Shown here piece after piece: positions 3,766-30,797 of a stretch of DNA of 32,000 bases; position 1 is the first letter of the stretch; every line of letters begins with the position of its first letter. This DNA is from Candidatus Pelagibacter sp. HTCC7211 (lineage in GTDB: Bacteria > Pseudomonadota > Alphaproteobacteria > Pelagibacterales > Pelagibacteraceae). The stretch spans positions 1 to 32,000 of the forward strand of contig NZ_DS995298.1 of assembly GCF_000155895.1 (NCBI RefSeq), in the 5' to 3' direction. The notes below the pieces were generated by a model. The model searched no databases. It was not told the DNA's origin and saw only the letters and a list, made by a program, of their open reading frames with translations. A program made the position numbers and the translations under genes.

Positions 3766-5148
3766 ATGGCTAAATTTTCAAGTATTACAGAAAACAATAC
3801 AATTCGCTTAGCCTTTAAAAGACTACATGGAGAACATGGAAAAATATTGGCCGTAATTGATAAAAAAAAATCTCTTCTTGGAGTGATTTCTACCGGTGAT
3901 TTACGAAGGGCAATTTTAGATGGTTATAATTTAAATGATAAAATAAAAAAAATATATAATCGTAATGTAACTTATGTTTACAAAGATGAACTGGAAAAAA
4001 AGAAATTAAATAAAAGTAATTTTGGCAGTGGCAGTTTAGGAGACTCAACCTTTTATGTGCCTATAGTAAATAATAATAAAAAAGTTTATGACATGATACC
4101 AGTTGAAAAGGTCTTGGCAACTCTTGAAAATAGAAAACTAATGCCCAGTAAAAAAAAAAGAACGCTACCAAAAATTTTAATAGTAGGTGGGGGTGGTTTT
4201 ATTGGTACTGTTTTAGCCTCTAAACTTTTAGAGAAAAACTACCACGTCACAATACTTGATAAATTAATTTATGATCATAAAATAATTAAAAAAAATTTTA
4301 ACAAAAAAAAAAATTTAAATTTCATATTAGGTGACGTCTGTGATTTAAATACCCAAATTAAAGCAATAAAAGAAATTGATATTGTGGTATATTTAGCAGA
4401 GATAGTTGGGGATCCTGCCTGTAGTGCTAAGCCTGAAGATGCTCTTAAGACGAATTATTTATCAGTACTGAGTTTTGCACACCTCTGTTCACATCTTGCT
4501 ATTGATAAATTTATCTATACGTCTTCCTGTAGTGTTTATGGATTAGATAAAAATAATAAACTTTTAAATGAAAAATCTAATCTAAACCCAGTTTCTCATT
4601 ATGCACGAATAAAAATCATGTCAGAAAAAGCATTATTATCTAGCTCAAATAATTATTTTAAACCAACAATAGTAAGGCTTGGCACAGTATTTGGTCCTTC
4701 AAAAAGAATGAGGTTTGATCTTGTGGTAAATACAATGTCAAAATTTGCTTATTTTAATAATAAAATTGATGTTTTCGGTGGAAATCAGTGGAGACCAAAT
4801 ATACATGTTGAAGATGTAGCTGATGGAATAATTTCAATAATAAAGTCGAAAAAGAAGAAAATAGAAAATCAAATCTTTAACTTATCAAATGATAAATTAA
4901 ATTTACAAATAATTGATATTGCCGAAAAAGTAAAAACCACATTCAAAAATGCAAAACTTAATGTTATAAAAACTTCTACAGACCCTAGAAATTACAAGGT
5001 TACTTCAAGAAAAATCAAAAATAAAACTGGTTTTGTAGCAAAGAAAAGTATTGAAAATTCATTAAAAGAGATAAAAAATATGTTTAGATTAAAAAAAATA
5101 AAAAACCCAGATAATAAAATCTACAATAATTTTTTGAGTTTGAAATAG
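3766..5148 (+). CDS. CBS-pair (Bateman) domain fused to an extended-SDR NAD-dependent epimerase/dehydratase
   Basis: The first 125 aa or so carry CBS-like repeats ('ILAVIDKKKSLLGVISTGDLRRAIL', 'FYVPIVNNNKKVYDMIPVEKVL'). 'ILIVGGGGFIGTVLA' is the Rossmann motif and 'YARIKIMSE' the Y-x-x-x-K. The SDR part is collinear with ORF 27249-28238 ('FIYTSSCSVYG' vs 'FIYASSSSVYG'; 'VFGGNQWRPNIHVED' vs 'VFGGEQLRPNLHIKD'). Confidence 0.7.
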   Translation: MAKFSSITENNTIRLAFKRLHGEHGKILAVIDKKKSLLGVISTGDLRRAILDGYNLNDKIKKIYNRNVTYVYKDELEKKKLNKSNFGSGSLGDSTFYVPIVNNNKKVYDMIPVEKVLATLENRKLMPSKKKRTLPKILIVGGGGFIGTVLASKLLEKNYHVTILDKLIYDHKIIKKNFNKKKNLNFILGDVCDLNTQIKAIKEIDIVVYLAEIVGDPACSAKPEDALKTNYLSVLSFAHLCSHLAIDKFIYTSSCSVYGLDKNNKLLNEKSNLNPVSHYARIKIMSEKALLSSSNNYFKPTIVRLGTVFGPSKRMRFDLVVNTMSKFAYFNNKIDVFGGNQWRPNIHVEDVADGIISIIKSKKKKIENQIFNLSNDKLNLQIIDIAEKVKTTFKNAKLNVIKTSTDPRNYKVTSRKIKNKTGFVAKKSIENSLKEIKNMFRLKKIKNPDNKIYNNFLSLK

Positions 5149-11392: not shown

Positions 11393-11938
11393 TTAAAACT
11401 TTGCTTTTGCAATAAAATCTACAATTGAGAGAAGCCAAATATGATGAGTCATTTCTATTATATTATAGTTTTTACTATTTAACCATAAATTTATATTTCC
11501 AATTTTTCTTACTTTATTTTTTCCATCAAAACCAGTAAGTGTAATTACTTTACAACCAATTTTTTTTGCAAAATTTGCACCATTTATAATATTTTTAGAC
11601 TCTCCACTACTACTAATGCAAATTAATAAATCACCTTTATCAGCATAAGAAGATAAAGCTTTTTTAACCCAATTTTCATAACCGTAATCGTTTGAAAAAC
11701 AGGTTAAAAGATCAGCTTCATTAAAATTAATTGCTCTTATCTTGCACATCTTTGTTAGATCAACAGTGACATGACTTGCTATAGCAGCACTACCACCATT
11801 TCCCACTATAATAACTTTTTTTTTATCTTTTTTAATTTTTTTTAAAATTTCAACAATCTTTAAAAAATTTTTATTGTCATAATTTAAATGAATTTTAGAA
11901 AACTTATTTAGATAATTTGTAAAATAATTTTTTTTCAT
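11393..11938 (-). CDS. gmhA: SIS-domain sedoheptulose-7-phosphate isomerase (GmhA-like)
   Basis: A 181-aa protein with 'VIIVGNGGSAAIASHVTVDL' and 'LICISSSGESKNI', which are SIS/GmhA hallmarks. Heptose-pathway partners lie in the same island. Confidence 0.7.
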   Translation of the reverse strand: MKKNYFTNYLNKFSKIHLNYDNKNFLKIVEILKKIKKDKKKVIIVGNGGSAAIASHVTVDLTKMCKIRAINFNEADLLTCFSNDYGYENWVKKALSSYADKGDLLICISSSGESKNIINGANFAKKIGCKVITLTGFDGKNKVRKIGNINLWLNSKNYNIIEMTHHIWLLSIVDFIAKAKF

Positions 11939-12100: not shown

Positions 12101-12457
12101 ATGAAGTTAAAAACTATCTGTTTTGATATTGATAATATCATTTGTAAAACTAATAATAAAAACGATTACTCAAAATCGTCACCTATAAAAAAAAATATAA
12201 AGATTATAAATAAAGCTTATGATAAAGGGCATAACATAATTCTATATACAGCAAGGTATATGGGTAGATGTAATGGAAACTTAAGAAAAGTAAATAAACT
12301 AATAAAACCTTTAACATTAAAACAACTAGAAAATTGGAGGGTAAAGTATCATAAAATTTATTTTGGAAAACCAAGTTTTGATTTATTTATTGATGATAAG
12401 TCTCTATTTTTTAAAAAAAATTGGGCAAATTTGTTAAAGAAAAAATTAAAGATTTAA
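12101..12457 (+). CDS. Minimal HAD-superfamily phosphatase (candidate sugar-bisphosphate phosphatase)
   Basis: 'ICFDIDNIIC' is HAD motif I (D-x-D), 'ILYTAR' motif II (T) and 'GKPSFDLFIDDK' motifs III/IV (K ... DD). At 118 aa it has no cap domain. Confidence 0.55.
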   Translation: MKLKTICFDIDNIICKTNNKNDYSKSSPIKKNIKIINKAYDKGHNIILYTARYMGRCNGNLRKVNKLIKPLTLKQLENWRVKYHKIYFGKPSFDLFIDDKSLFFKKNWANLLKKKLKI

Positions 12458-13419: not shown

Positions 13420-14178
13420 ATGAAATTTAAAATTAAAAATAAAACAGCACTTATTATTGGAGCAAGTAAAAATATAGGTAGAAGTATCTCAGTTGCTCTA
13501 GCAAAAGAAAAAGTTGCACTGATTATGGTAGCTAGATCAAGAGATAAATTGACTAAATTAAAAAAAGAAGTTGATAAATACTCAAAAAATAACTCTATAA
13601 TAAAAATAGACCTGAGTATAAAAAGTAACATTAATAAGCTTATTAATAAAGTTAACAAAAATCATAAAAAAATTGATATAATTATTCATAATTTAGGTGG
13701 ATCACTTAGCATTAAAGATCCATTTGCTTCATCTGTAAAATGGTCAAAAGTTTGGAATATCAATTTGGGTTATGCTATTGATATTAATAATTTTTTTATC
13801 CCTAAAATGGCTTTAAATAAATGGGGTCGTGTCATTCATATATCTTCAGCAATAACAACTTCTTTTGATGGATACTCACCATATGCTTCCGCAAAATGTG
13901 CCTTAGAGGGATATATTAAATCTGTCAGTAAAGTAGTTTCAAGAAATAATGTTATTATTAGTGGTATAGCACCTGGATTAATTGATAAAGAAGAGGGATA
14001 TTTTAATTATTTAAAAAATAATAATATTTTAAAATTAAATGAATATTATCAAAATAAATTACCTATTCATAGAATGTGTACGCCAGCTGAAGTAGCAAAT
14101 ACAGTAAAATTTTTATGCTCTGATCTTTCTTCATATCTTCCGGGTGTAATTATTAAACAAGATGGTGTGGGAAATTGA
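13420..14178 (+). CDS. Classical short-chain dehydrogenase/reductase
   Basis: 'ALIIGASKNIGRSI' is the T-G-x3-G-x-G variant, 'IIIHNLGG' the NNAG variant, and 'ISSA...YASAKCAL' the catalytic S/Y/K set. Confidence 0.8.
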   Translation: MKFKIKNKTALIIGASKNIGRSISVALAKEKVALIMVARSRDKLTKLKKEVDKYSKNNSIIKIDLSIKSNINKLINKVNKNHKKIDIIIHNLGGSLSIKDPFASSVKWSKVWNINLGYAIDINNFFIPKMALNKWGRVIHISSAITTSFDGYSPYASAKCALEGYIKSVSKVVSRNNVIISGIAPGLIDKEEGYFNYLKNNNILKLNEYYQNKLPIHRMCTPAEVANTVKFLCSDLSSYLPGVIIKQDGVGN

Positions 14179-14185
14179 AAAAAAA

Positions 14186-14962
14186 ATGACTAATAAATCA
14201 AAACTATCTTTTCATAATGGATTTGAAATCTATGAATCAAATAATATCAAATTATTAACTAAATTAAGAACTGATATTTATTTTGAGATGAAAAAAATCT
14301 TTAAGTTAAGTGAAAAAAATCCTGAGAAAGGATTAAATCATTTTCATAAAGCTGTAGGCAACTTATCTAGTAAGGATCTTAATGCAAAAAGAAAAAAATT
14401 AATTAATACAGTAACAAAAAAAATTAATTTTGGAGAAATTATTTTTAAAGCATTTGAAAAGTATCTAGTTAATAATTTAGGTCCAGATATAATTGTTCAG
14501 AAAAACTGTAATATTGTAATCCAAATGCCAAATGATCCAAATCCATCTGAGATCCATAGAGATGCACCTCTAAACTCGGCATATGAAATTGTAGCATGGA
14601 TACCTCTTGTAGATTGCTATAAATCTAAAGCAATGTATATTCTGGATTACCCTTCAACCAAAAAAGCATTAAAATTTTTAAAAAAAAATACTAAAGATTG
14701 GAAAAAGTTTGAAATTTATAGCAAAAAAATAAAATCAAATCCTGAAGTAAAATTTGGACAGGGACTGTTTTTTTCTTCATGTCTAATTCATGGATCTGAC
14801 ATTAATGTAGAAAAAGAAACAAGAATTAGTTTAAATATAAGATTTAAATCATTATTCTCACCGGCTGGTAAAAAAAATCAGCTTCAATACTTTAAATCTT
14901 TAAAACTTAGTAATATTTCAAATATTGGAATAGATTTTGAATCCGGTAACTTATTTGATTAA
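14186..14962 (+). CDS. 2OG-Fe(II) oxygenase (PhyH-like), carbohydrate-cluster type, copy 1
   Basis: The facial triad is 'IHRD' ... 'LIHGS', with the 2OG-binding Arg in 'ETRISLNIRF'. It is collinear with ORF 24748-25545. The ORF track starts at ATG 14162 inside the upstream SDR. ATG 14186 lies 7 nt after that SDR's stop and is my preferred start. Confidence 0.65.
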   Translation: MTNKSKLSFHNGFEIYESNNIKLLTKLRTDIYFEMKKIFKLSEKNPEKGLNHFHKAVGNLSSKDLNAKRKKLINTVTKKINFGEIIFKAFEKYLVNNLGPDIIVQKNCNIVIQMPNDPNPSEIHRDAPLNSAYEIVAWIPLVDCYKSKAMYILDYPSTKKALKFLKKNTKDWKKFEIYSKKIKSNPEVKFGQGLFFSSCLIHGSDINVEKETRISLNIRFKSLFSPAGKKNQLQYFKSLKLSNISNIGIDFESGNLFD

Positions 14963-15371
14963 ATCATTTTATTGTTGTATTGACAGTCTTCTTCCGGCAA
15001 CACAGCCAGAGCAACATATAATCTGTGAAAAAATAGCTAGCTTAAATAATGGAAAAATAATATTTTATGGAGCAGAAGATGTTTTGGTTACTAAGTACCA
15101 ACCATTTATTTATGAAAAGTTACGCAGGACACCTAAAATTGATGGTGTTATCTTCTTTACAATAGATCAGTTTTGTTATGAAAATTCTTTTAATATCGAT
15201 TTAATTCGAAAAATAATTGAATTAAAAATAAGTATACACTTTGCTAGAGAAAATATTTCATATTTTAATTTAAAAGAAGTTAAAAACGATTTACCACAAA
15301 TATATTCTTATTTTTATTCATTTAATAGAGCTAGAAGAAAATATGCAAGTAATATAAAAAAAATATTATAA
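14937..15371 (+). CDS. Small uncharacterised partner protein of the 2OG oxygenase, copy 1
   Basis: It immediately follows and overlaps the oxygenase. The start is ATG 14937 or an in-frame TTG at 14955. It is a divergent by-eye paralog of ORF 24359-24751: 'LPATQPEQHIICEKIASLNNGKII' vs 'IPQSIQNLAIRDYCSRNNIMYL', 'DGVIFFTIDQF' vs 'EDIILYSLFQL', 'ISIHFARENISY' vs 'KIYFALENRIF'. Confidence 0.5.
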   Translation: MNPVTYLIKSFYCCIDSLLPATQPEQHIICEKIASLNNGKIIFYGAEDVLVTKYQPFIYEKLRRTPKIDGVIFFTIDQFCYENSFNIDLIRKIIELKISIHFARENISYFNLKEVKNDLPQIYSYFYSFNRARRKYASNIKKIL

Positions 15372-15372
15372 T

Positions 15373-16584
15373 TTAGTTTAACCACCATTGATTTTTTTTC
15401 AAAAAATCACTACCAATTCTTCCTTTAATTTCCCCATGATATAATTTTGAATTAAATATTTTTTTACTTGGAAAAATTTTGATAAATTTTTCATTCAATT
15501 TATCACCTTCTTTGTCTTTCCATTCTTTTATATTTCTTTTTGCAGCTTCAATAGCCAATTTTTCTATCTCGTCAGCTGAATTTTGCATTAATTCAATACC
15601 TGCATCCTTAAAGTTTTTTGATTTAAGATATACTGCCGACTCACTATTTGTTATTTCTGAAATAGTTAGTCTTCTTGATAATTTTTTACTATAGTAGTGA
15701 CAGGGTATTGATAACAAACTTGAACATTCCATTCTTAAATCAAATAATGGCGCTATATTAACATAAATGTTTGGTTTTCGAAACATGAGGGTAATGCCAT
15801 CAAATCCTGTTCCTGTTGTTAAACAGAATTCACATTGTGAGCCTAAATAAATATCCATAAAGTCAGTTCTTAAATTATTATACGCGTAGTCAATTATCAT
15901 TTTATTATTTGTATCAATTGGTTTTTTTACAACAGCACCCATCCTTATCACGTAATATCCTAGTTTAGTTAATGCCTCACAAGCATTTACAAAATCATTT
16001 ATATCTGCATCACGATAATCATGAATGCTTATTTTTTTACCGTATAATTTTTCTAGATAAGATGAATCCCTTACGATAAGACAAACAAATTTTGCTTTTT
16101 TTGGTAATCCGATTCTTGCTCTTTCTTTTTCTCCATTAATTAAATCATAATTATTTAATTTTATGGTAGCTGGATATTGATCTAATAAATTTAATATATC
16201 TCGTTGACCACATAATGTATTTCCACATCTTAAAAACTTTAAAAATTTGAAATAACGAATTTGAAGACATAATGGCCTTAAAATAAATCTTGGAAATATT
16301 GTCAATTCCTCTCTCCAAAGTCTTTCAAGCGTTTTATTACATACATTTTTACGTCCTAAATAAAATAGATCTATTGATTTAATTTTCTTTTTTTTTTTTT
16401 CTAAAAGATATAACTCTGTATCTAATGTAAAATGCCCAATTCTATCAGACCTTAGAAAGCCAACTTTTATTTTGATAAATGGATAAATAACAATAAGAAA
16501 AAATAAAAAAGGTAATGAAAGAGGTAACGTTAAAAAAAGGTCTAATTCATATTTTAATATTCCTATAATTCTTTTATTTATCAT
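15373..16584 (-). CDS. Membrane-anchored uncharacterised protein, putative glycosyltransferase
   Basis: An N-terminal hydrophobic segment ('FLTLPLSLPFLFFLIVIYPFI') precedes a soluble domain of about 340 aa. 'FVCLIVRDSSYL...DYRDADINDF...LTKLGYYVIRMG' recalls a poorly characterised putative GT family from memory. The ATG overlaps the upstream stop by 1 nt. Confidence 0.3.
   Translation of the reverse strand: MINKRIIGILKYELDLFLTLPLSLPFLFFLIVIYPFIKIKVGFLRSDRIGHFTLDTELYLLEKKKKKIKSIDLFYLGRKNVCNKTLERLWREELTIFPRFILRPLCLQIRYFKFLKFLRCGNTLCGQRDILNLLDQYPATIKLNNYDLINGEKERARIGLPKKAKFVCLIVRDSSYLEKLYGKKISIHDYRDADINDFVNACEALTKLGYYVIRMGAVVKKPIDTNNKMIIDYAYNNLRTDFMDIYLGSQCEFCLTTGTGFDGITLMFRKPNIYVNIAPLFDLRMECSSLLSIPCHYYSKKLSRRLTISEITNSESAVYLKSKNFKDAGIELMQNSADEIEKLAIEAAKRNIKEWKDKEGDKLNEKFIKIFPSKKIFNSKLYHGEIKGRIGSDFLKKNQWWLN
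16388..16400. repeat. 13-nt homopolymeric T (A13 on the coding strand) inside the putative glycosyltransferase gene
   Basis: Counted directly: positions 16388-16400 are all T. The tract encodes the 'EKKKKK' stretch at about codons 62-67 of ORF 15373-16584. Confidence 0.9.
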
Positions 16585-17267
16585 TACTTTACTAAATTAT
16601 AATTTTTAACTGTGCCTATATCTATGAATAGTTTATCAGTTTTGTATGCTGCAATTTTATTTTCCATTGAACCAAGAACTTCTTTACTAAAATCATATGA
16701 CTCAGGAAATTTTTCAAAAAAAATTTTTAGAAATTCTTTAGATAATATGTAAACAGCACTATTAGCTTCATTTCCATAATTTTTATTCATCTTTTCATAA
16801 AATTTTGTGACTATGTTTTTATTATTTTTTTTGATTATTCCACAGGTTGATGGAGTATCTGTTTCAAACGTCATCATACTTAATTGACAGCTCTTAGGTC
16901 TATTTATATGAAAATTTATAAAATCTTTTAGATCATCTAAAGTATAGTTATCTGCATGTATAAAAAAACCATCTTGTTCATCAAAAAAAGAAATATTGTT
17001 TAATAAAGTTCCAGCTGTTCCTAATAATTCTTTTTCATAAACAACTTTTATTGATTTTTTATATTTTGAAGTATTTATATAATCATTAACTTTTTCACTA
17101 AGATAATGAGTATTAATTAGAAAATCACTTATGCCAGCATTTGATAATTTATCTAGCCATATTTCAAGTAATGGTATTCCTTTAATTGGCATAAGACACT
17201 TTGGAGTATTATTAGTATATGGCCTTAATCGCATACCTTTGCCAGCACACAATAATATTGCCTTCAT
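16584..17267 (-). CDS. Sugar-1-phosphate nucleotidyltransferase (HddC/GDP-heptose-type NTP_transferase)
   Basis: 'MKAILLCAGKGMRLRPYTNNTPKCLMPIKGIPLLE' is the G-x-G-x-R-L nucleotidyltransferase loop and resembles the Campylobacter HddC N-terminus. It overlaps the upstream gene with ATGA. Confidence 0.7.
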   Translation of the reverse strand: MKAILLCAGKGMRLRPYTNNTPKCLMPIKGIPLLEIWLDKLSNAGISDFLINTHYLSEKVNDYINTSKYKKSIKVVYEKELLGTAGTLLNNISFFDEQDGFFIHADNYTLDDLKDFINFHINRPKSCQLSMMTFETDTPSTCGIIKKNNKNIVTKFYEKMNKNYGNEANSAVYILSKEFLKIFFEKFPESYDFSKEVLGSMENKIAAYKTDKLFIDIGTVKNYNLVK

Positions 17268-18703
17268 ATGTTATTGATTTTATTTTGAATTTCTTTTGTT
17301 TTTAAAGGTATATTACCCACTCTACTTACTTGAATTCCAGCACCAACAGAACCTAAGTATGCTGCTTCAAAAATATTAGCTCCACAAGAAAGTGCAAGAG
17401 CGCTGCATACCAGAAGAGAATCTCCAGCTCCAGCAGGGTCAACTGCATTTGTATTGAATGTATTGAGCTGATCTGTAAATAGTTTATCTTGTACTTTGTT
17501 TTTAGAGTGAATTAAAAGACCTTCTTCTCCTAATTTCAGAAGTACATTGTTAGCTTTTGAAATTTCTTTAATCTTATCTGCAAGTACTACTAATCCATCT
17601 TCTCGATTTCTCAATGTTATACGGGCCTCATTTTCTGTGGGTGTAATCAAGTCCATATTTCTAAATCTACTAATATCACCAAATTGTGATGACGACTGAC
17701 TATCTGCAACAATTTTTATTTTTTTAGATATTGCTAATTTAGTTATATGATCAACAACTTTTTGTGGTAACACCCCATAATTAAAATCTGAAAAAATTAA
17801 TAAATTTGAACTTTCTAATTGTTTTTCAATTTTACTAATAAGAATATTTATAAATTTATCACTTATTGAGTTTTGTTTAAGATGGCTTACTTTAAGTAAG
17901 GTCTTATTTTTGTTTCGAAATCTCTTTTTTAATGTTGTTATACGATTATAATCGACAATAATATTGCTATGTACGCCTTGTCTAGATAAAGTTTTTTCAG
18001 CAAAATTTTTATTTTCATCATCACCTGACACAGTAAAAATACTGGATGAAGCACCTAGACCAGCTGCATGAGCAGCAACTATACCTGCTCCACCTATATA
18101 TTTTGAGCTATCTACTGGAGTAACAACAAGAGAAGGGTCTTCTTGAGACATACCAAGTGTTTCACAGTTAATATATTCATCTATTATAAGATCTCCTATC
18201 ACACTTACTTTAACACTTGAAAAAGTATTCAGTAAATTTGTTAATCTTTCAACCTTAATATTGTGTCTTTTGAGGTAATCATGATGCATTAAAAAGTCCT
18301 CGTTTGAGTCATTTTTAATTTCTTTTCTAATCAAATCCATAGAAGATAATAAATTTTCACCTGAGCCAAATAGTAGTTGACCGTTAAACTCTTCTAAAAT
18401 TTCTTTCTCAACATTAAATTTTTGTTCGTGTTCTTTTCCTTTTACAATAATATCTGGCTTTAATTTTTTGATGAAATCTTCAATTGGCTCATCAATAATC
18501 ACTGCTTTATCAACTAAGTTATTTGAAGAAATCCCCTCTAGTCTTAAATTTTCATTTATATAAGCAGCCTTCCCAGCATTTCTATCAGATAAAACTCCAA
18601 CAATAAGTTTTCCGTTCATATCCTTGGCAAATCTAAGAAGTCTTATGTGGCCGGGGTGTAAGACATTAAAAGCACCTGAAATAAAAATTGTTTTATTCAC
18701 CAC
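17264..18703 (-). CDS. Bifunctional cytidylyltransferase-fold nucleotidyltransferase (N-terminal) / PfkB-ribokinase-family sugar kinase (C-terminal); HldE-like with swapped domain order
   Basis: It starts at a GTG (18703 or 18700). N-terminal 'GAFNVLHPGHIRLL' is the (H/T)xGH motif and 'RLEGISS' matches the RTxGIST motif. The C-terminal 340 aa or so carry 'VSVIGDLIIDEYI', 'GGAGIVAAHAAGLGA' and 'DPAGAGDSLL', which are PfkB/HldE domain I hallmarks. Confidence 0.75.
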   Translation of the reverse strand: MVNKTIFISGAFNVLHPGHIRLLRFAKDMNGKLIVGVLSDRNAGKAAYINENLRLEGISSNNLVDKAVIIDEPIEDFIKKLKPDIIVKGKEHEQKFNVEKEILEEFNGQLLFGSGENLLSSMDLIRKEIKNDSNEDFLMHHDYLKRHNIKVERLTNLLNTFSSVKVSVIGDLIIDEYINCETLGMSQEDPSLVVTPVDSSKYIGGAGIVAAHAAGLGASSSIFTVSGDDENKNFAEKTLSRQGVHSNIIVDYNRITTLKKRFRNKNKTLLKVSHLKQNSISDKFINILISKIEKQLESSNLLIFSDFNYGVLPQKVVDHITKLAISKKIKIVADSQSSSQFGDISRFRNMDLITPTENEARITLRNREDGLVVLADKIKEISKANNVLLKLGEEGLLIHSKNKVQDKLFTDQLNTFNTNAVDPAGAGDSLLVCSALALSCGANIFEAAYLGSVGAGIQVSRVGNIPLKTKEIQNKINNI

Positions 18704-22775: not shown

Positions 22776-23711
22776 TTATTCCCAAATTGTATCATTGTCT
22801 TTGAAAGGTCCATTATTTACCTCTAGAAAAATGCAATAATCAGATTTACTCTCGACAATTCTAAATTCATTAGGTTTCAATCTATATGATTTTGATAATG
22901 TTTCATTTTCAAATGTTTCTGATCCTAGAATAACTTTTTTGTTTTTATCTTTATTTGAAATCTCAAGCAAACCATCAATAATATGATAACTGATTGATTC
23001 TTTATTTTGTTTTAGTGGACCAACAGAGGATGGACAGGAATGAAACATGTACATTTCATGCAAATTTGAATCATCATCTTTGTGAAGACATATTCTGCTT
23101 ACTTTAATATTTCTTATTTGTGATAGAAAAAGAAAAAAATAAAGATGCTTTTTAGAAACATTAAAAATATTATTTTTAGAATAGTATACTCTCTCGTTTT
23201 TTTTAACTATATTAAGTTGATTTATTATATTTTTTTCAATTAAATTTTCATATTTTTTATTAAAATCTCTAAATTTTTTTGAAAGATAATTGCTAATTTT
23301 GAATAAATTTTCATAAATAGCTGGAACAATATCGAGATGCACTAATTCATCTATACTAAACCAGTTATATTCTATACCTTCATTAAGTTTAAATTTATTA
23401 TTTTCGTCTTCTTTACTTATAAAAATTGGAAAATAATGAAGATCAATTGATTTCCACTTACTCTGAAAAATTTCGCTTTCAATTAATTTTGGAGAGTATT
23501 CAATTTCTTCAATCAATTCTCGTCTGAGAGCTTCATGAAAATTTTCTCCAACTTCAACCTCTCCCCCAAAAAAATTCCAATGAAGAGGGTATGGAATTTC
23601 AGGGTTATTATCTCTTTTTTGAAGCAGCAATTTTTTGTCTGATCTATATATTATGGCTTTAACTGCATGGAAAGATTTTTTACTGGTATTATTCAAAGTA
23701 GATAAATTCAT
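22776..23711 (-). CDS. Nudix hydrolase fused to a C-terminal WbuC-like cupin domain
   Basis: The Nudix box is 'GGEVEVGENFHEALRRELIEEIEY' (G-x5-E-x7-R-E-x2-E-E). The C-terminal 130 aa or so, 'ICLHKDDDSNLHEMYMFH...SYHIIDGLLEI...FLEVNNGPF', resemble WbuC-family cupins. The ORF track starts at GTG 23777 inside the upstream gene; ATG 23711 ('MNLSTLNN') is preferred. Confidence 0.6.
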   Translation of the reverse strand: MNLSTLNNTSKKSFHAVKAIIYRSDKKLLLQKRDNNPEIPYPLHWNFFGGEVEVGENFHEALRRELIEEIEYSPKLIESEIFQSKWKSIDLHYFPIFISKEDENNKFKLNEGIEYNWFSIDELVHLDIVPAIYENLFKISNYLSKKFRDFNKKYENLIEKNIINQLNIVKKNERVYYSKNNIFNVSKKHLYFFLFLSQIRNIKVSRICLHKDDDSNLHEMYMFHSCPSSVGPLKQNKESISYHIIDGLLEISNKDKNKKVILGSETFENETLSKSYRLKPNEFRIVESKSDYCIFLEVNNGPFKDNDTIWE

Positions 23712-24354
23712 AATCACCTTTATATCCAAAATGTTCAAATAACCATATCCATGAGTCTTTATTAAAAAAAGATTCACATGTGAGGGCCCAGCATTGTAAA
23801 TTAAATTGTTCTTTTTCGTTTCTATAACTTTCGACAGCTATATATTTGTTTTTACCTACTCTCTCAATTTCTGTAATAGCAGTTTTTAAGTCAGGTATTT
23901 GAAGATTGTGCAAGGCATTTATAGATATGACTAGGTCAAATTCATTATCTTTAAAAGGAAGAGTTTTTTTCAAATTATGAATGAAAAAATTATTCTTAAA
24001 TATTTCAGGAGCCTCTTTAAGAGCATGCTTAGAAATATCTATTCCAACTATATTTATTGATGGTAATTGTTTTTTTATCTCTAAAAGCAAAAATCCTTTA
24101 CCACATCCTGCATCTAAAATTCTAGAATTATCTTTTAAGTTATAATCAGTTATTATTTGCTTAGCAAGACTGCTCCATCTTCCTTTTATATATTTATAGC
24201 CTCCATAACCATATCTTCTATCACCATCCCAATAATTAAATTCATATTTCTTAGCTTCAATCATACATGAAACCTTATCATCATTCATCCTTTCCAGATA
24301 TTCACGTTTAGTAGATTTATGAAGTGCAGTTATATAATCTTTTAATCGTCCCAT
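23689..24354 (-). CDS. Class I SAM-dependent methyltransferase
   Basis: 'ILDAGCGKGFLLLEI' is motif I, 'IVGIDIS' motif II and 'FDLVISINALHN' motif III. The ATG at 24354 lies 4 nt after the upstream stop. Confidence 0.75.
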   Translation of the reverse strand: MGRLKDYITALHKSTKREYLERMNDDKVSCMIEAKKYEFNYWDGDRRYGYGGYKYIKGRWSSLAKQIITDYNLKDNSRILDAGCGKGFLLLEIKKQLPSINIVGIDISKHALKEAPEIFKNNFFIHNLKKTLPFKDNEFDLVISINALHNLQIPDLKTAITEIERVGKNKYIAVESYRNEKEQFNLQCWALTCESFFNKDSWIWLFEHFGYKGDYEFIYFE

Positions 24355-24358
24355 TCCT

Positions 24359-24751
24359 TTAAAATTTTTCCAAACAGTTAGGTAATACTTCTTTTATACT
24401 CCAAATATCTTCAATTATTTGAATATCATCTTTATTATTAAAAATCCTATTTTCTAGAGCAAAGTAAATTTTTTTTTTATTTTTAATGGCAATTTTATAA
24501 ATTTTTTCTCTTTGACTAGTATCATTTGGTAATTGAAACAAACTATAAAGAATTATATCCTCTTTATTAATTTCATTAATTATTTTAAAAAGAACTTTTG
24601 ATGAGTTCTTCATTGCATATTCAGTTGCACTCAATAAATACATAATATTGTTTCTTGAACAATAATCTCTAATAGCTAGGTTTTGAATGGATTGAGGAAT
24701 TCGTTCACCAAGAAATTTCCTACTAAAGATATACCCTCTTGCTTTTTTCAT
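24359..24751 (-). CDS. Small uncharacterised partner protein of the 2OG oxygenase, copy 2
   Basis: This 130-aa protein overlaps the oxygenase with ATGA. It is a by-eye paralog of ORF 14937-15371. It has no transmembrane segment and no catalytic motif I can name. Confidence 0.55.
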   Translation of the reverse strand: MKKARGYIFSRKFLGERIPQSIQNLAIRDYCSRNNIMYLLSATEYAMKNSSKVLFKIINEINKEDIILYSLFQLPNDTSQREKIYKIAIKNKKKIYFALENRIFNNKDDIQIIEDIWSIKEVLPNCLEKF

Positions 24752-25545
24752 TTAATCTTTGGCAATTTATATTTCATTGCAAATTTTGAAGCTGCTTTAA
24801 GTGAAATTGGCTCAAAAAATTCTCCTAACTTTTTGTCACCATATGGAGTAAAAATACCTTTAAATCGACAATTCATCGACCATCTTGTCTCTTTTTCCTC
24901 ATTTACTAAATTTCCATGTGGTAGACATTGATTGAATATTAAAACCTGACCATAGTTTATTTTAAGCCATTTTATATCATTTTTAATTTTCGGAAAAAGC
25001 TCTGAACTATTTTTAAATTTTGAACTTTGAAGCAGATTAGTAATTTTTTTATACTTTGAGGCTGGAAGTATAAACATACTTTTTGTCTTAAAGCAGTTCA
25101 CGAGAGGTAGCCATACAACTGACTCAAATGGAGAGTCTCCTGACCAGGTATCTGCGTGAACATCTAACAATGAACTTTTATCTTTAGGTAATTGAATACT
25201 GAGGTTTACTCGGTTTTGCATAACAAGTTCGTTGCCAACAATTTCATTTAAAAATGGAGAAGCAACATTATAATATTCTTTTCTAAAATTTTTATCTTTA
25301 TTGACTTCCTGGATTAAACTAAGTCTAAAATTATTAAGATCATTAATTTTTATCAATTTATGAAAGTTATTTAAAATATCTTTATTTGAGTAATCTTGAT
25401 TAAAATAATTTTTAATAAATTTTAAATAAAAATTTCTTATCCAATCTAAAGACCTTATATTTTGGATATCAACAATGATATATCCATCTTTAAGATATCT
25501 TTTAGACAAATAATTTTCAGACTCAGTAATGAATATGTTACTCAT
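24748..25545 (-). CDS. 2OG-Fe(II) oxygenase (PhyH-like), carbohydrate-cluster type, copy 2
   Basis: 'VHAD' ... 'LPHGN' form the H-x-D...H triad, with Arg in 'ETRWSMNCRF'. It is collinear with copy 1: 'LNNFHK' vs 'LNHFHK', 'VVWLPLVNCFKTKSMFIL' vs 'VAWIPLVDCYKSKAMYIL'. Confidence 0.7.
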   Translation of the reverse strand: MSNIFITESENYLSKRYLKDGYIIVDIQNIRSLDWIRNFYLKFIKNYFNQDYSNKDILNNFHKLIKINDLNNFRLSLIQEVNKDKNFRKEYYNVASPFLNEIVGNELVMQNRVNLSIQLPKDKSSLLDVHADTWSGDSPFESVVWLPLVNCFKTKSMFILPASKYKKITNLLQSSKFKNSSELFPKIKNDIKWLKINYGQVLIFNQCLPHGNLVNEEKETRWSMNCRFKGIFTPYGDKKLGEFFEPISLKAASKFAMKYKLPKIK

Positions 25546-26473
25546 ATTTTTTTAGAAAATTTAAAGTAGTTTTAATAATTTTTTTATCGCTTAATCCATG
25601 ACTATCTAAAAGATCATCTTGAGAACCATAATTATTAATAAATTTATCTTTAAGTGAAAAATTTTGAATATTTCCAGAGTATTTATTCTCGTAGGCTAAT
25701 CCTTTAACAATTTCTGAAAGACCTCCAACAATTGAATGATCTTCAATATTTACAATATATTTATATTCTTTAAAAATTTTTTTTAATCTTTTTTCATCAA
25801 ATGGTTTTAATGTGCTGCAGCTATAAATTGAGCTCTTAATTCCATATTTTTTTAAAGCATCTACCGCGGTAAATGATTTTCTAATAATATTTCCATAGGT
25901 CAGAAAACAAATATCTTTACCTTCAATTATTCTTCTGATTTTACCAAACTGCCATTTTTCTTTGGAAATTTGTGTATAATTTTTTTCTCCAGATTTTCCA
26001 ATTCTAAGATATGTGGGTGAATTTGACTTGTTGCAGCAATAATCAACTGCTTGTTTTAATTCGAGAGGGTCAGATGGAGCAATGATAGTCATATTTGGTA
26101 TAGACCTTGCTACAGATATATCCTCCATAGTTATATGTGTACCTCCAAGTGTAGCATAAGTTGTCCCTGAACCCATTCCAACTATTGTAACTGGTAAATT
26201 TTGATAACATAAGTCATTCCTAACCATTTCAAATGGTCTATAAAGAGTGAAGTTTGCTATTGTGTATGCAAAAGATCTTTTGCCTTCTAGAGCTAGACCT
26301 GCGCACATACCTATCATGGTCATTTCTGAAACACCTACATTGATGAATCTTCGTGGATATTTTTTTTGAAAATTTAACATATTTCCAGCTATTGATATAT
26401 CAGCTACCACAACGTAAATATTTTTATTTTTTATTGCATTTTGATATAATGTTTCTGCAAATATATTTCTCAT
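25538..26473 (-). CDS. Transketolase, C-terminal (pyrimidine-binding + C-terminal domain) subunit
   Basis: 'FINVGVSEMTMIGMCAGLALEG' and 'MGSGTTYATLGGTHITMEDISVARSIPNMTIIAPSDP' are typical of the B subunit of split transketolases. It overlaps the N-terminal subunit gene with ATGA. Confidence 0.8.
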   Translation of the reverse strand: MRNIFAETLYQNAIKNKNIYVVVADISIAGNMLNFQKKYPRRFINVGVSEMTMIGMCAGLALEGKRSFAYTIANFTLYRPFEMVRNDLCYQNLPVTIVGMGSGTTYATLGGTHITMEDISVARSIPNMTIIAPSDPLELKQAVDYCCNKSNSPTYLRIGKSGEKNYTQISKEKWQFGKIRRIIEGKDICFLTYGNIIRKSFTAVDALKKYGIKSSIYSCSTLKPFDEKRLKKIFKEYKYIVNIEDHSIVGGLSEIVKGLAYENKYSGNIQNFSLKDKFINNYGSQDDLLDSHGLSDKKIIKTTLNFLKKYE

Positions 26474-27243
26474 AAATTATTTATTTCTTTTATCGCTTGT
26501 TTATATTCGTTTTTATTAGGTGATCTGTAATGCCATAATGCAACGTTCTTCATAAAACTGACTGGATAGCCTTTTATAGTTTTAGCAATTAATGCAAAAG
26601 GTTTTTTTCCTTTACGTGATTTAATTTTTTTGAAAATTTCCTCTGTAGAATGCCCGTTGCAGTTAGAGGACTCCCATCCAAACTCTTTAAATTTTTTTGA
26701 TATAGGATATAAATTTGGGTGAGTTTCTGATGACCTTGTTGAGCTTTGAAGATCATTATTATCTATAATTAAAACAATATTTGTTAAATTTAGTGCACCT
26801 ATAATAAGTGCAGACTCCCACACAGATCCTTCATGTAATTCTCCATCACTTAATAACACGAAATAAGTGCTATCTTTTTTTGCTAAAGCCATACCAGAAA
26901 CCATTCCTAAACCATGACCTAATGATCCTGTTGATGCATTAATTCCTTTTTTACCAAAATCAGGATGAACACCCAAATAACCACCCCTCTGGCAATATGA
27001 ATTTAATTCTTTTTTAGATATAATTTTCAAATAATATAGTAATACATATTGAATAATTCCCGCATGACCTTTTGAAAGAATAAATTTATCTCTTTTTTTT
27101 AAACAAATATTATAAATACAATCAACAATTTCTACTGATGAAAATGATCCACCTATGTGTAAAGCTTGAACTTTTTGGGATAAATTAAGAATTTCGCGTC
27201 TATGAATTTTACATCGTAATTTAGCATCAAAAAATTTTTTCAT
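26470..27243 (-). CDS. Transketolase, N-terminal (ThDP-binding) subunit
   Basis: 'LSKGHAG', 'TGSLGHGLGMVSGMALA' and 'LLSDGELHEGSVWES...IIDNN' form the ThDP/Mg-binding G-D-G...N-type motif region of split transketolases. Confidence 0.8.
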   Translation of the reverse strand: MKKFFDAKLRCKIHRREILNLSQKVQALHIGGSFSSVEIVDCIYNICLKKRDKFILSKGHAGIIQYVLLYYLKIISKKELNSYCQRGGYLGVHPDFGKKGINASTGSLGHGLGMVSGMALAKKDSTYFVLLSDGELHEGSVWESALIIGALNLTNIVLIIDNNDLQSSTRSSETHPNLYPISKKFKEFGWESSNCNGHSTEEIFKKIKSRKGKKPFALIAKTIKGYPVSFMKNVALWHYRSPNKNEYKQAIKEINNL

Positions 27244-28417: not shown

Positions 28418-28807
28418 ATGAAACATAGCGATATTAAAATTTCATCTAATAAAAGTTTTGGAATAGTTTTTTGTGTCTTGTTTTTAATTATTTCATTATT
28501 TCCTCTACTAAATGGTGAGGGTATTAGAATTTGGTCTTTAATCATTTCTGTAGTTTTTTTAATTTTAGGTTTATTAAATTCAAAATTTTTAACACCTTTA
28601 AATAAACTTTGGTCTAATTTTGGAATTTTTCTAGGAAATTTTATTTCTCCAATTATTATGGCAATAGTTTTTTTTTCAATTGTTACACCCACCTCTATTG
28701 TAATGAAAATTTTAGGTAAAAACCTACTTAATTTAAAAAAAAAAAAGAAAAATTCATACTGGATTGAAAGATCTAAAATTAAAAGTAAAATGAAAGATCA
28801 ATTTTAA
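28418..28807 (+). CDS. SxtJ-like small membrane protein
   Basis: A 129-aa protein with several hydrophobic segments. 'SNKSFGIVF', 'LTPLNKLWSNFGIFLGNFISPIIMAIVFF' and the C-terminal '...SYW...MKDQF' match my memory of the SxtJ family found next to carbamoyltransferases. Confidence 0.6.
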   Translation: MKHSDIKISSNKSFGIVFCVLFLIISLFPLLNGEGIRIWSLIISVVFLILGLLNSKFLTPLNKLWSNFGIFLGNFISPIIMAIVFFSIVTPTSIVMKILGKNLLNLKKKKKNSYWIERSKIKSKMKDQF

Positions 28808-28809
28808 TT

Positions 28810-28959
28810 ATGGATTTTATAAAAGAATTTTGGCAATTTATAAAAGTACGAAAAAAATATTGGTTATTACCAATTTTAATTGTTTTAGTTATATTTGGAG
28901 GTTTAATCGTTTTAAGTCAAGGTTCAGCTATAGCGCCTTTTATTTATACAATTTTTTAG
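28810..28959 (+). CDS. SxtK-like / DUF5989-type 49-aa single-pass membrane protein (absent from the ORF track)
   Basis: My own translation from ATG 28810 gives MDFIKEFWQFIKVRKKYWLLPILIVLVIFGGLIVLSQGSAIAPFIYTIF, ending at TAG 28957-28959. It starts 2 nt after the SxtJ-like stop, and its stop overlaps the GTG of the carbamoyltransferase by 1 nt. The sequence pattern is typical of the small protein conserved beside carbamoyltransferases. Confidence 0.65.
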   Translation: MDFIKEFWQFIKVRKKYWLLPILIVLVIFGGLIVLSQGSAIAPFIYTIF

Positions 28960-30797
28960 TGAAATCTATTCTTGGTATATCAGCATTTTATCATGACAGC
29001 GCTGCGTCTATTCTTATAGATGGAAAAATAATAGCTGCTGCACAAGAAGAGAGATTTACAAGGAAAAAACATGACTCGAGTTACCCATATCATGCAATTG
29101 AATTTGTTTTAAGTTTTGCTAAAATTAAACTTAGTGAAGTTGATCAAATTATTTTCTTTGAAAAACCTTTTTTAAAATTTGAAAGATTATTGGAAACATA
29201 CGTTGCTTTTGCACCAAAAGGTTTTAAATCTTTTTCTACTGCAATGCCAATATGGCTGAAAGATAAATTATTTCAAAAAAAATTACTTTTTACTAAATTA
29301 AAAAAACATGACGATAAATTTAATGATAATAAAAAAATTTATTTTTCAGAACATCATTTAAGTCATGCTGCAAGCGCCTTTTTTCCGTCTCCATTCGAAG
29401 AGGCGATAGTTTTAACTGCTGATGGTGTTGGTGAGTGGGCAACAACTACAGTTGCTATCGGTAAGGGAAATAGTCTTGAAATTAAAAAAGAAATACATTT
29501 CCCTCATTCATTAGGATTACTTTATTCAGCCTTTACTTATTATACTGGATTTAAAGTTAATAGTGGAGAATATAAACTCATGGGTCTGGCTCCTTATGGA
29601 GATCCTATTTATGAGCAAGTAATAAAGAGAAATATAATTGACATAAAGGAGGATGGGTCCTTTCATCTTGATCAGTCATATTTTAATTATGCTACTGGTT
29701 TAACAATGACGAATGAAAAGTTTAATAATTTATTTGGACGAAAAGCTAGGAACCCTAGGTATGAAGAACTTACACAATTTCATATGGATATAGCATCTTC
29801 AATTCAAAAAATAACAGAGGACATAATGATTAAACTCTGCAAATCCTTAAAAAATGAATTTAATATTTCGAACTTATGTTTAGCTGGTGGTGTTGCACTA
29901 AATTGTGTTGCTAATGGAAAAATTTTGAAAGAAAAAATTTTTGACAAAATTTGGGTTCAACCAGCTGCGGGGGATGCTGGGGGTTCATTAGGTGCAGCTT
30001 TAGCTTTATGGTATATTGAACAAAATAATCCTAGAAAAATTAATATTAAAGATGATATGCAAGGTTCTTATCTTGGACCCGAATACTCACAAAATGAAAT
30101 TGAAGAGCAACTTACTAAAATTGGAGCAAAATATGAAATTATTTCAGATCAAGAATTAATAGATAAAACTGCTAATGATTTATCTCAAGATAATGCAATT
30201 GGTTGGTTTCAAGGAAGAATGGAATTTGGACCACGTGCACTAGGTGCAAGATCTATTTTAGCTAATCCTAAATCAGATCATATGCAAAAAAATTTAAATT
30301 TGAAAGTTAAATATAGAGAGAGCTTTAGACCATTTGCACCATCAGTGTTAAAAGAGGATGTATCTGAATGGTTTAATATTGATGTTGATAGTCCTTACAT
30401 GCTTATGGTTTCAAATATTAATAAAGATAAGACAATTGAAATGACTAATGATCAAAAAAAGTTATTTGGCATAGACAAATTAAATGTAAAAAGATCTGTA
30501 ATACCTGCAGTTACGCATGTTGATTATTCTGCGAGAATACAAACTGTTCACAGAGAAACAAATAGTAAATATTATGATTTAATTAAAAGATTCAAGGATA
30601 AAACAAATTGTCCTATTCTTATAAATACATCTTTTAACGTTAGAGGAGAACCCATTGTAAATACTGTCTTTGATGCTTTTAATTGTTTTATGGGTACGAA
30701 TTTGGATAAATTAGTTATAGGCAATTGTTATCTAGATAAAAAAAATCAAAATAAAAGTTTGAAAAAAGAGTACAAAAATAAATTTGAATTAGATTAA
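28959..30797 (+). CDS. NodU/CmcH-family O-carbamoyltransferase
   Basis: From GTG 28959 the protein begins 'VKSILGISAFYHDSAASILIDGKIIAAAQEERFTRKKHD', the canonical N-terminus of this family. 'EHHLSHAASAF' is the metal-binding His cluster. The ORF-track start (TTG 28830) adds 43 non-homologous residues in a frame that overlaps the 49-aa gene. Confidence 0.85.
   Translation: MKSILGISAFYHDSAASILIDGKIIAAAQEERFTRKKHDSSYPYHAIEFVLSFAKIKLSEVDQIIFFEKPFLKFERLLETYVAFAPKGFKSFSTAMPIWLKDKLFQKKLLFTKLKKHDDKFNDNKKIYFSEHHLSHAASAFFPSPFEEAIVLTADGVGEWATTTVAIGKGNSLEIKKEIHFPHSLGLLYSAFTYYTGFKVNSGEYKLMGLAPYGDPIYEQVIKRNIIDIKEDGSFHLDQSYFNYATGLTMTNEKFNNLFGRKARNPRYEELTQFHMDIASSIQKITEDIMIKLCKSLKNEFNISNLCLAGGVALNCVANGKILKEKIFDKIWVQPAAGDAGGSLGAALALWYIEQNNPRKINIKDDMQGSYLGPEYSQNEIEEQLTKIGAKYEIISDQELIDKTANDLSQDNAIGWFQGRMEFGPRALGARSILANPKSDHMQKNLNLKVKYRESFRPFAPSVLKEDVSEWFNIDVDSPYMLMVSNINKDKTIEMTNDQKKLFGIDKLNVKRSVIPAVTHVDYSARIQTVHRETNSKYYDLIKRFKDKTNCPILINTSFNVRGEPIVNTVFDAFNCFMGTNLDKLVIGNCYLDKKNQNKSLKKEYKNKFELD

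Follow-up and report, generated by a model that had tools for sequence, protein, structure and literature searches.

Why should a single stretch of DNA carry the same pair of genes twice, and what does the smaller gene of each pair contribute? The question is raised by a window of 32,000 nucleotides (nt) from Candidatus Pelagibacter sp. HTCC7211 (contig NZ_DS995298.1, positions 1 to 32,000), in which the gene of a 2-oxoglutarate (2OG)-dependent Fe(II) oxygenase is followed, at two places and in opposite orientations, by the gene of a small partner protein. A preliminary description made from the sequence alone had listed both gene pairs and proposed that they encode one and the same two-protein unit. 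Both pairs exist where it had placed them, and the identity of the unit is borne out by paralogous oxygenases and by partners that are homologous at the profile level. The analysis leads firmly to the view that the island carries the TIGR04324/TIGR04323 system as two paralogous oxygenase-partner units that were duplicated jointly in ancient times, one of each of two types, and, just as firmly, to the view that the partner in copy 1 belongs to an unrecognised sister clade.

Two oxygenases and two small partners

The oxygenase of copy 1 (14186..14962, + strand; 258 amino acids, aa) falls in a divergent "type 1" clade of TIGR04324, the NCBIfam family named "sporadic carbohydrate cluster 2OG-Fe(II) oxygenase", and that of copy 2 (24748..25545, - strand; 265 aa) is a canonical member; the matches are nearly full length and score 190.2 and 318.5 bits, respectively, against a curated cutoff of 150 bits. 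For copy 1 an alternative ATG lies upstream at 14162; its homologs are 258 aa long. BLASTP aligns the two oxygenases with 32% identity over ~253 residues (E 5e-35) and identifies them as paralogs, and every motif that had earlier been quoted for their homology is aligned: IHRD/LIHGS with VHAD/LPHGN, WIPLVDCYKSKAMYIL in copy 1 with WLPLVNCFKTKSMFIL in copy 2, and ETRISLNIRFK with ETRWSMNCRFK. The metal and 2OG ligands are placed at H124, D126, H202 and R213 in copy 1 (codons 14555-14557, 14561-14563, 14789-14791 and 14822-14824, + strand) and at H130, D132, H210 and R221 in copy 2 (codons 25156-25158, 25150-25152, 24916-24918 and 24883-24885, - strand). Because both types conserve the HxD...H triad and, 11 residues past the distal His, the Arg (at least 90% in each, and invariant in 39 sequences), both copies look catalytically competent. 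The residues right after HxD are type-specific ("HRDA-PxNS" versus "HxDxWSGDSP"), a pattern compatible with different substrates or regiochemistry, and for this reason the earlier suggestion that the two copies act on different sugars is plausible.

The AlphaFold2 (AF2) model of the copy-1 oxygenase, with a predicted local distance difference test score (pLDDT) of 91.8, adopts a predicted double-stranded beta-helix fold of the PhyH type, for which Foldseek returns 320 matches in the Protein Data Bank (PDB) at E ≤ 0.001; AndA, ThoJ, SptF, SyrB2, PtlH and human PhyH are the top structural neighbours, and TlxIJ is also among them. PhyH-type oxygenases (PhyH 2a1x, PtlH, AndA, SptF, ThoJ and SyrB2) thus share with the present enzymes the predicted fold, the HxD...H triad and the 2OG-binding Arg, which in PhyH likewise lies 11 residues after the distal His, whereas identity amounts to only 11-14% and the template modelling (TM) scores to the oxygenase model to 0.43-0.57. 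Domain searches return little: the copy-1 oxygenase is without a Pfam match, the sole Pfam match of copy 2 is one of 14 bits to 2OG-FeII_Oxy_5, and neither copy reaches the gathering score of PF05721. A precomputed PF05721 match is present in some homologs, and a PDB sequence search with the copy-2 oxygenase gave nothing meaningful.

The partner in copy 2 (24359..24751, - strand; 130 aa) is a canonical member of TIGR04323, the "LIC12192 family sporadic carbohydrate cluster protein", scoring 132.5 bits against a curated cutoff of 55 bits with residues 4-122 on profile positions 2-121 of 122. The earlier remark that the small protein carries no assignable motif is thereby overturned, as it is by the model of this protein discussed below, which has the fold of a serine-recombinase catalytic domain. 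Pfam finds no domain in either small protein, and a weak OspG_kinase match to copy 1 was treated as noise. The partner in copy 1 (14955..15371, + strand; 138 aa with a TTG start) is a divergent LIC12192-like protein, of which TIGR04323 matches only residues 60-117, at 16.6 bits (E 0.0056) and thus below the cutoff; compared directly by BLASTP, the two partners show no similarity (E 11). Profiles built from 23 copy-1-type and 31 copy-2-type sequences are aligned by hhalign with a probability of 96.2% (E 2.6e-9, 96 columns), with HFARENIS opposite YFALENRI, so that FAxEN is in register, as are the patches PQxxQ, (S/G)A(T/E)E, DG(I/V)xx(Y/F)(S/T)xxQ(L/F) and (Y/H)FAxEN. The similarity of the two small open reading frames (ORFs) is thus significant from profile to profile, and the common order of patches, F-A-x-E-N included, that had been read from the two sequences is beyond chance. 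Bridging partners from Prochlorococcus and from other Pelagibacteraceae match both profiles (E 1.5e-13 and 1.5e-11 for L023, a Prochlorococcus locus). These comparisons mark the copy-1 partner as a homolog of the LIC12192 family that forms a sister subfamily, and not as a member of the family as currently delimited; the partners' own homolog sets comprise 37 clusters for copy 1, down to 45-50% identity, and more than 521 for copy 2. Both copies resemble the named TIGR04324/TIGR04323 pair in gene order, in overlap and in lying in a carbohydrate cluster; copy 2 belongs fully to the two families and the copy-1 oxygenase passes TIGR04324, whereas the copy-1 partner fails TIGR04323 and stands in a sister clade with an oxygenase clade of its own. 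The pairing is already implicit in the NCBIfam family names, which are annotation labels only, and a literature search found no paper on TIGR04323/LIC12192 or TIGR04324.

The start of the small gene overlaps the stop of the oxygenase gene in both copies, as had been claimed, although the start given for copy 1 probably has to be moved. In copy 2 the overlap is an ATGA at 24748-24751. The copy-1 ORF (14937-15371, + strand) is entirely devoid of a methionine codon, and its start must be TTG because it holds no ATG. The TTG at 14937 would give a protein of 144 aa; since the orthologs begin at the site equivalent to 14955 (with TTG in L007 and L004 and with ATG in L001), the gene likely spans 14955-15371, with an 8-nt overlap with the oxygenase stop. 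Its dN/dS against the nearest orthologs is ~0.11-0.13, the same as for the oxygenase, values that are rough in view of saturated dS and that suggest purifying selection as strong as that on the oxygenase.

Pairing and joint descent across genomes

A scan of one genome per species retrieved 269 oxygenase relatives, and the best 80 loci were analysed, drawn from Pelagibacteraceae, Prochlorococcus, other cyanobacteria, Leptospira, Bdellovibrionota, Verrucomicrobia, Magnetospirillum, Acidimicrobiia, Acidobacteria, Bacteroidota and one archaeon. An LIC12192-like ORF directly follows 83 of the 96 oxygenase-like ORFs in these loci on the same strand, in most cases overlapping by 4 nt; the other 13 are four weak oxygenase-like ORFs (~30 bits) outside the family and nine family members. 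A methyltransferase is inserted between oxygenase and partner in L031 and an aminotransferase in L027, and the same aminotransferase follows the oxygenase in L028, where the contig ends before any partner becomes visible. In five high-GC loci (L010, L015, L016, L019 and L020) the 3' end of the oxygenase gene is overlapped by a third, very divergent partner type with the pattern "FVGVLLEFD...APTxxEQ...DGVLLFSLD...LALLVEDL", which is missed by both partner hidden Markov models; the L014 contig breaks off ~115 nt beyond the stop of the oxygenase gene, and only the beginning of a third-type ORF can be seen. L010, L014, L015, L016 and L019 come from Acidimicrobiia and other Actinomycetota, and L020 from Acidobacteria. 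A profile of four third-type sequences aligns in register with the copy-1-type profile (probability 72%, E 3e-5) and matches the canonical partner profile weakly. All family oxygenases in the 80 loci are therefore paired or explained, L014 and L028 by the early end of their contigs, and the strict pairing inferred at the outset holds, in that a partner is found near the family oxygenases throughout and none of these is routinely without a small ORF. Much more distant PhyH-like ORFs (~30 bits to the oxygenase profile) without an LIC12192-like partner occur in the same islands (L012 1162-1977, L027 8187-8930, L034 7163-7945 on the - strand, and L035 1-702).

The descent of the two proteins was compared in 79 non-redundant oxygenase-partner pairs, 18 of whose partners score better on the copy-1-type profile and 61 on the canonical one. 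Clustering by the unweighted pair group method with arithmetic mean, cut at two clusters, yields the same 18/61 partition from the oxygenase and from the partner; in neighbour-joining trees of either protein, one branch divides exactly the same 18 and 61 loci; and the nearest neighbour of every oxygenase and of every partner is of the same type, the same locus being nearest for both proteins in 44 of the 79 pairs. The co-duplication suggested in the preliminary description thus agrees with trees that are congruent at their deepest split. The paralogs in the window are separated by distances of 0.69 (oxygenase) and 0.83 (partner), and each is closer to orthologs in Oligoflexia or Kiloniellaceae (0.58-0.64 and 0.60-0.74, respectively). 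Since paralogs of one genome are more distant than orthologs across phyla, the duplication is regarded as ancient, and distinct functions can be argued for because both types are kept side by side, as in the window, L001, L017, L025 and the L013/L064 contig. Judged from these trees and distances, the unit was duplicated once, long ago and jointly, after which its two proteins split in parallel into two types. The canonical pair can also be missing as a unit: in L004 (GCA_001757065.1, contig MDTF01014284.1, 1-1461), a closely related island that does carry a copy-1-type pair, the transketolase C-terminal gene is directly followed by the methyltransferase.

Distances between oxygenases and distances between partners are correlated with r = 0.94, a value reached by 0 of 2000 permutations. 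On the subsets of loci that possess a given neighbour, on which the correlations with neighbours were computed, oxygenase and partner reach r 0.88-0.92, compared with 0.63 for oxygenase and methyltransferase, 0.58 for oxygenase and the C-terminal half of transketolase, and 0.26 for oxygenase and its N-terminal half; the partial correlation of oxygenase and partner given a neighbour is 0.80-0.88. Such co-divergence fits co-adaptation, or at least exchange that is strictly pairwise. In the alignment of the 79 pairs, the canonical type combines Arg11 of the partner with an oxygenase Asp five residues after HxD, and in the copy-1 type the corresponding residues are Asp10 of the partner and Asn of the oxygenase, which may represent a compensating change between the two proteins.

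The cassettes in their gene neighbourhoods

The surroundings that had been reported for the two pairs, a classical short-chain dehydrogenase/reductase (SDR) for copy 1 and a transketolase operon for copy 2, are as described. Directly upstream of oxygenase copy 1 lies a classical FabG-like SDR (13420..14178, + strand) that is recognised by NCBIfam SDR models, and directly upstream of oxygenase copy 2 a split transketolase (25538..27243, - strand; Pfam Transketolase_N, Transket_pyr and Transketolase_C), with its N-terminal part at 26470-27243 and its pyrimidine-binding and C-terminal part at 25538-26473, both on the - strand. A class-I S-adenosylmethionine-dependent methyltransferase of 221 aa (23689..24354, - strand; Pfam Methyltransf_31/25/11) begins 4 nt downstream of partner copy 2. 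This arrangement corresponds to the order of the canonical module, (NAD epimerase/dehydratases)-split transketolase-oxygenase-partner-class-I methyltransferase. In 51 of 60 loci it is encoded no more than 5 kb from the canonical cassette, and this methyltransferase is usually the third member of the unit, so that the term "two-protein unit" falls short of the canonical module as a whole; the transketolase halves are found within 5 kb upstream in 34-37 of the 60. Copy-1-type cassettes more often stand behind an FabG-like SDR (7 of 17, including those of Verrucomicrobia and other Alphaproteobacteria) and adjoin a TIGR04372 glycosyltransferase (6 of 17).

The partner family comprises 956 representatives at 50% identity, nearly all of 125-150 aa. 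Fusions of the partner to the class-I methyltransferase of the module are found in P0247 (353 aa), L047 6582-7727 (Silvanigrella), L062 4999-6063 and L078 6621-7685 (Pelagibacteraceae), and one to a TylC3-like C-methyltransferase in P0358 (503 aa). A tandem partner-partner protein, P0239 (270 aa), whose second copy is without Ser10 and Gln20, is consistent with a partner dimer of the kind formed by resolvases.

The window as a whole has a GC content of ~25% and is crowded with glycan-biosynthesis genes, as judged from Pfam and NCBIfam matches. It contains a GDP-mannose dehydratase and a fucose-synthase-like gene, several NAD epimerase/dehydratases, a DegT aminotransferase, two TylC3-like C-methyltransferases, a sulfotransferase-like protein, a carbamoyltransferase, an ATP-binding cassette exporter and a TIGR04372 glycosyltransferase. 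The nearest related locus, L007 from a Pelagibacteraceae single-cell genome, has an identical gene order around copy 1, with proteins 65-87% identical, and because of this kinship the window is regarded as a surface-glycan island of the SAR11 type. A GmhA-like sugar isomerase (SIS) protein (11393-11938, - strand), a haloacid dehalogenase (HAD) phosphatase (12101-12457, + strand), a sugar nucleotidyltransferase (16584-17267, - strand) and an HldE-like bifunctional kinase/nucleotidyltransferase (17264-18703, - strand), all assigned from Pfam and NCBIfam, make up a route for the activation of nucleoside diphosphate (NDP)-heptose, placed between the two cassettes. In the HldE-like protein, which the second nucleotidyltransferase adjoins, the cytidylyltransferase-like domain is N-terminal and the PfkB kinase C-terminal; E. 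coli HldE has the opposite domain order. Across the 80 loci, gmhA or hldE homologs are present in the 6-kb flanks of about a third, the archaeal one included.

Several further genes were observed in the window. Directly after the methyltransferase of the canonical module follows a gene for a 333-aa protein (22776-23777, - strand) with an N-terminal NUDIX hydrolase and a C-terminal WbuC-type cupin; L004 has a comparable gene behind its methyltransferase, and in L013 and L064 homologs are situated in the vicinity of cassettes. An N-terminal CBS domain is fused to an NAD-dependent sugar epimerase/dehydratase in a protein of 460 aa (3766-5148, + strand), an architecture that may point to the regulation of sugar-nucleotide metabolism by a ligand. 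At the edge of the island (28418-30797, + strand), a small SxtJ-family membrane protein and then a 655-aa carbamoyltransferase form what looks like an O-carbamoylation module; in L029 and L058, a homolog of this carbamoyltransferase is found downstream of the canonical module.

The fold of the partner and its possible role

The AF2 model of partner copy 2 (pLDDT 83.8) consists of a four-to-five-stranded alpha/beta domain followed by a helix of 23 residues, and its best 19 Foldseek matches in the PDB are all serine recombinases (query-based TM-score, TMq, 0.62-0.68; probability 0.97-1.0), among them a pneumococcal resolvase, the TP901-1 and Bxb1 integrases and the gamma-delta and Tn3 resolvases. 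The LIC12192-like partner is thus predicted to fold like the catalytic domain of these enzymes (gamma-delta/Tn3 resolvase, TP901-1, Bxb1), in strand order as well as in the long C-terminal helix. Residues that are invariant in the family are found directly behind strands 1-4 and where helix A begins, and in the model the conserved polar residues line the C-terminal edge of the beta-sheet; by topology, the conserved residues would occupy the equivalent of the recombinase active-site pocket. In contrast to serine recombinases, the partner shows no detectable sequence relationship to them, has Phe-Gln at the position of the catalytic Asp-Arg, is without a DNA-binding domain and sits in sugar operons and not in mobile elements. 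Pox_F16, presumably a family of inactivated recombinases, gives a weak match to copy 2 and is matched below threshold in 6 of the 31 canonical partner members, and a PDB sequence search with the partner profile returned nothing meaningful.

Building on these data, a model can be proposed in which the partner would be an obligate and probably dimeric companion of a PhyH-type Fe(II)/2OG oxygenase, the second gene being translationally coupled to the first. The pocket of the partner may bind or present a (phospho- or nucleotide-)sugar substrate, or may complete the step; in the canonical type, the partner may also pass the product to the adjacent methyltransferase and so link hydroxylation to methylation. 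Each unit would then perform an oxidative tailoring step of its own, different from that of the other, on sugars of the surface polysaccharide that derive from NDP-heptose. This joint reading, with its obligate companion, sugar-binding pocket, link from hydroxylation to methylation and two different modifications of NDP-heptose sugars, is given slightly better than even chances. It has been speculated further, from established transketolase chemistry, that the transketolase could supply sedoheptulose 7-phosphate or add a two-carbon unit. In a bolder form of the model, which is put forward tentatively and is rather doubtful, LIC12192-like proteins would be serine-recombinase catalytic domains that sugar metabolism has recruited. 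Their dimers would provide the core that presents the substrate, or a composite active site, in a heteromeric Fe(II)/2OG oxygenase of a new class, the core of the canonical type also docking the methyltransferase and the duplicated pairs of this island being two specificity variants for sugars derived from NDP-heptose.

There is precedent for parts of this model. PhyH-type oxygenases can rely on a second protein that delivers the substrate or serves assembly, as SyrB2 does on SyrB1 and as the TlxI/TlxJ heterodimer illustrates, although SyrB1, unlike the LIC12192-like partner, is a phosphopantetheinylated helical carrier domain, and TlxJ, again unlike it, is itself an oxygenase paralog. None of the PhyH-type enzymes listed above is known to need a partner of resolvase fold. 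Fe/2OG chemistry on sugars or lipopolysaccharide components within biosynthetic clusters is represented by KdoO, LpxO and SnoK/SnoN, which act alone and belong to other sequence families. A covalent carrier role via Ser10 was considered as a general mechanism and is disfavoured, as the copy-1 type is hydrophobic at this position.

A number of points weigh against the model of an obligate companion. The recombinase resemblance depends on a single AF2 model (pLDDT 83.8) and is without sequence support; hhalign pairs the partner family with E. coli PinE at a probability of only 0.2%, with the catalytic "KLDRLG" opposite "SLFQLP", and for this reason the relationship is claimed only at the level of the fold. 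Ser10-Arg11, invariant in the canonical partner, is not retained in the copy-1 type, and a universal catalytic or carrier residue is absent. A mirror-tree correlation can arise from joint horizontal transfer and not from physical co-adaptation, and tight adjacency with overlapping stop and start codons is common in compact genomes and is no proof of a complex. No oxygenase-partner fusion was found among the 150 best of the 956 family representatives, and the methyltransferase fusions agree with an enzyme acting in sequence, or with an adaptor for the methyltransferase, no less than with an oxygenase subunit. Lastly, the substrate has been inferred from gene context, and heptose genes are nearby in only about a third of the loci.

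The main rival takes up the sequential enzyme and, while a serious possibility, is considered less probable than the companion model: the partner would be a separate enzyme that uses the recombinase-like pocket for a step of its own between hydroxylation and methylation (e.g., isomerisation, elimination or phospho-transfer) and that travels with the oxygenase only through a shared substrate. The invariant polar residues Y7, S10, R11, R17, Q20, Q23, N24, E44, S70, Q73, R81 and E100 are located at C-terminal strand ends, the usual catalytic site of alpha/beta folds, the order oxygenase-partner-methyltransferase is strongly conserved, and fusion to two kinds of methyltransferase is typical of consecutive enzymes. 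However, co-divergence with the oxygenase (r 0.88-0.92) is far tighter than with the methyltransferase (0.63), the copy-1 type retains the pair usually without such a methyltransferase, and S10 and R11, the most prominent of the canonical residues, differ between the types. Decidedly less probable again is a factor for solubility or assembly that has no catalysis of its own: like the MbtH-like proteins for adenylation domains, it would be required for the oxygenase to fold and would handle no substrate. The small size of the partner, the lack of a cofactor motif or Pfam domain, the strict adjacency with translational coupling, and a tandem partner-partner protein suggestive of a dimeric scaffold are all in keeping with such a factor, yet ~20 invariant and mostly polar positions across phyla would be rare in a pure chaperone, and the methyltransferase fusions would be hard to account for.

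The remaining two readings have very little left to recommend them. The small ORF of copy 1 might be suspected to have arisen by chance or to be a relic in decay, and the second cassette to be a recent, degenerating local duplication, because of the missing ATG start, the score under the TIGR04323 cutoff and the lack of BLASTP similarity to copy 2, but pseudogene and recent duplication alike are refuted by the 37 homolog clusters reaching down to 45-50% identity, by a dN/dS equal to that of the oxygenase (~0.11-0.13), by orthologous pairs in Verrucomicrobia, Bdellovibrionota, Magnetospirillum and Prochlorococcus and by paralogs that lie farther apart than cross-phylum orthologs, and 138 stop-free codons in DNA of 25% GC would be very improbable by chance. 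Similarly, a fragment of a mobile-element serine recombinase, lodged in a variable island and unrelated to sugar chemistry, would explain why resolvases and integrases are the top Foldseek matches and why Pox_F16 is weakly matched below threshold, but is effectively refuted by the constant company of the oxygenase in 80 loci from bacteria and an archaeon, by the absence of an N- or C-terminal DNA-binding domain from a 130-aa model that one alpha/beta domain and one helix use up fully, and by the lack of a resolvase sequence match, there being no Resolvase Pfam match for the partner even at E up to 1 and only the 0.2% alignment to PinE described above.

The pair thus described is spread over many bacterial phyla and at least one archaeon, in O-antigen-type loci in Leptospira and in hypervariable surface-glycan islands in SAR11 and Prochlorococcus. 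The second and probably a third type of partner are at present annotated as hypothetical proteins, and the recognition of both improves annotation. Islands with two copies, such as the one analysed here, provide natural material for tests of specificity by partner swapping. Should catalysis turn out to require the partner, the 2OG oxygenase would have an accessory subunit of an unusual kind, and the resolvase fold a rare use away from DNA.

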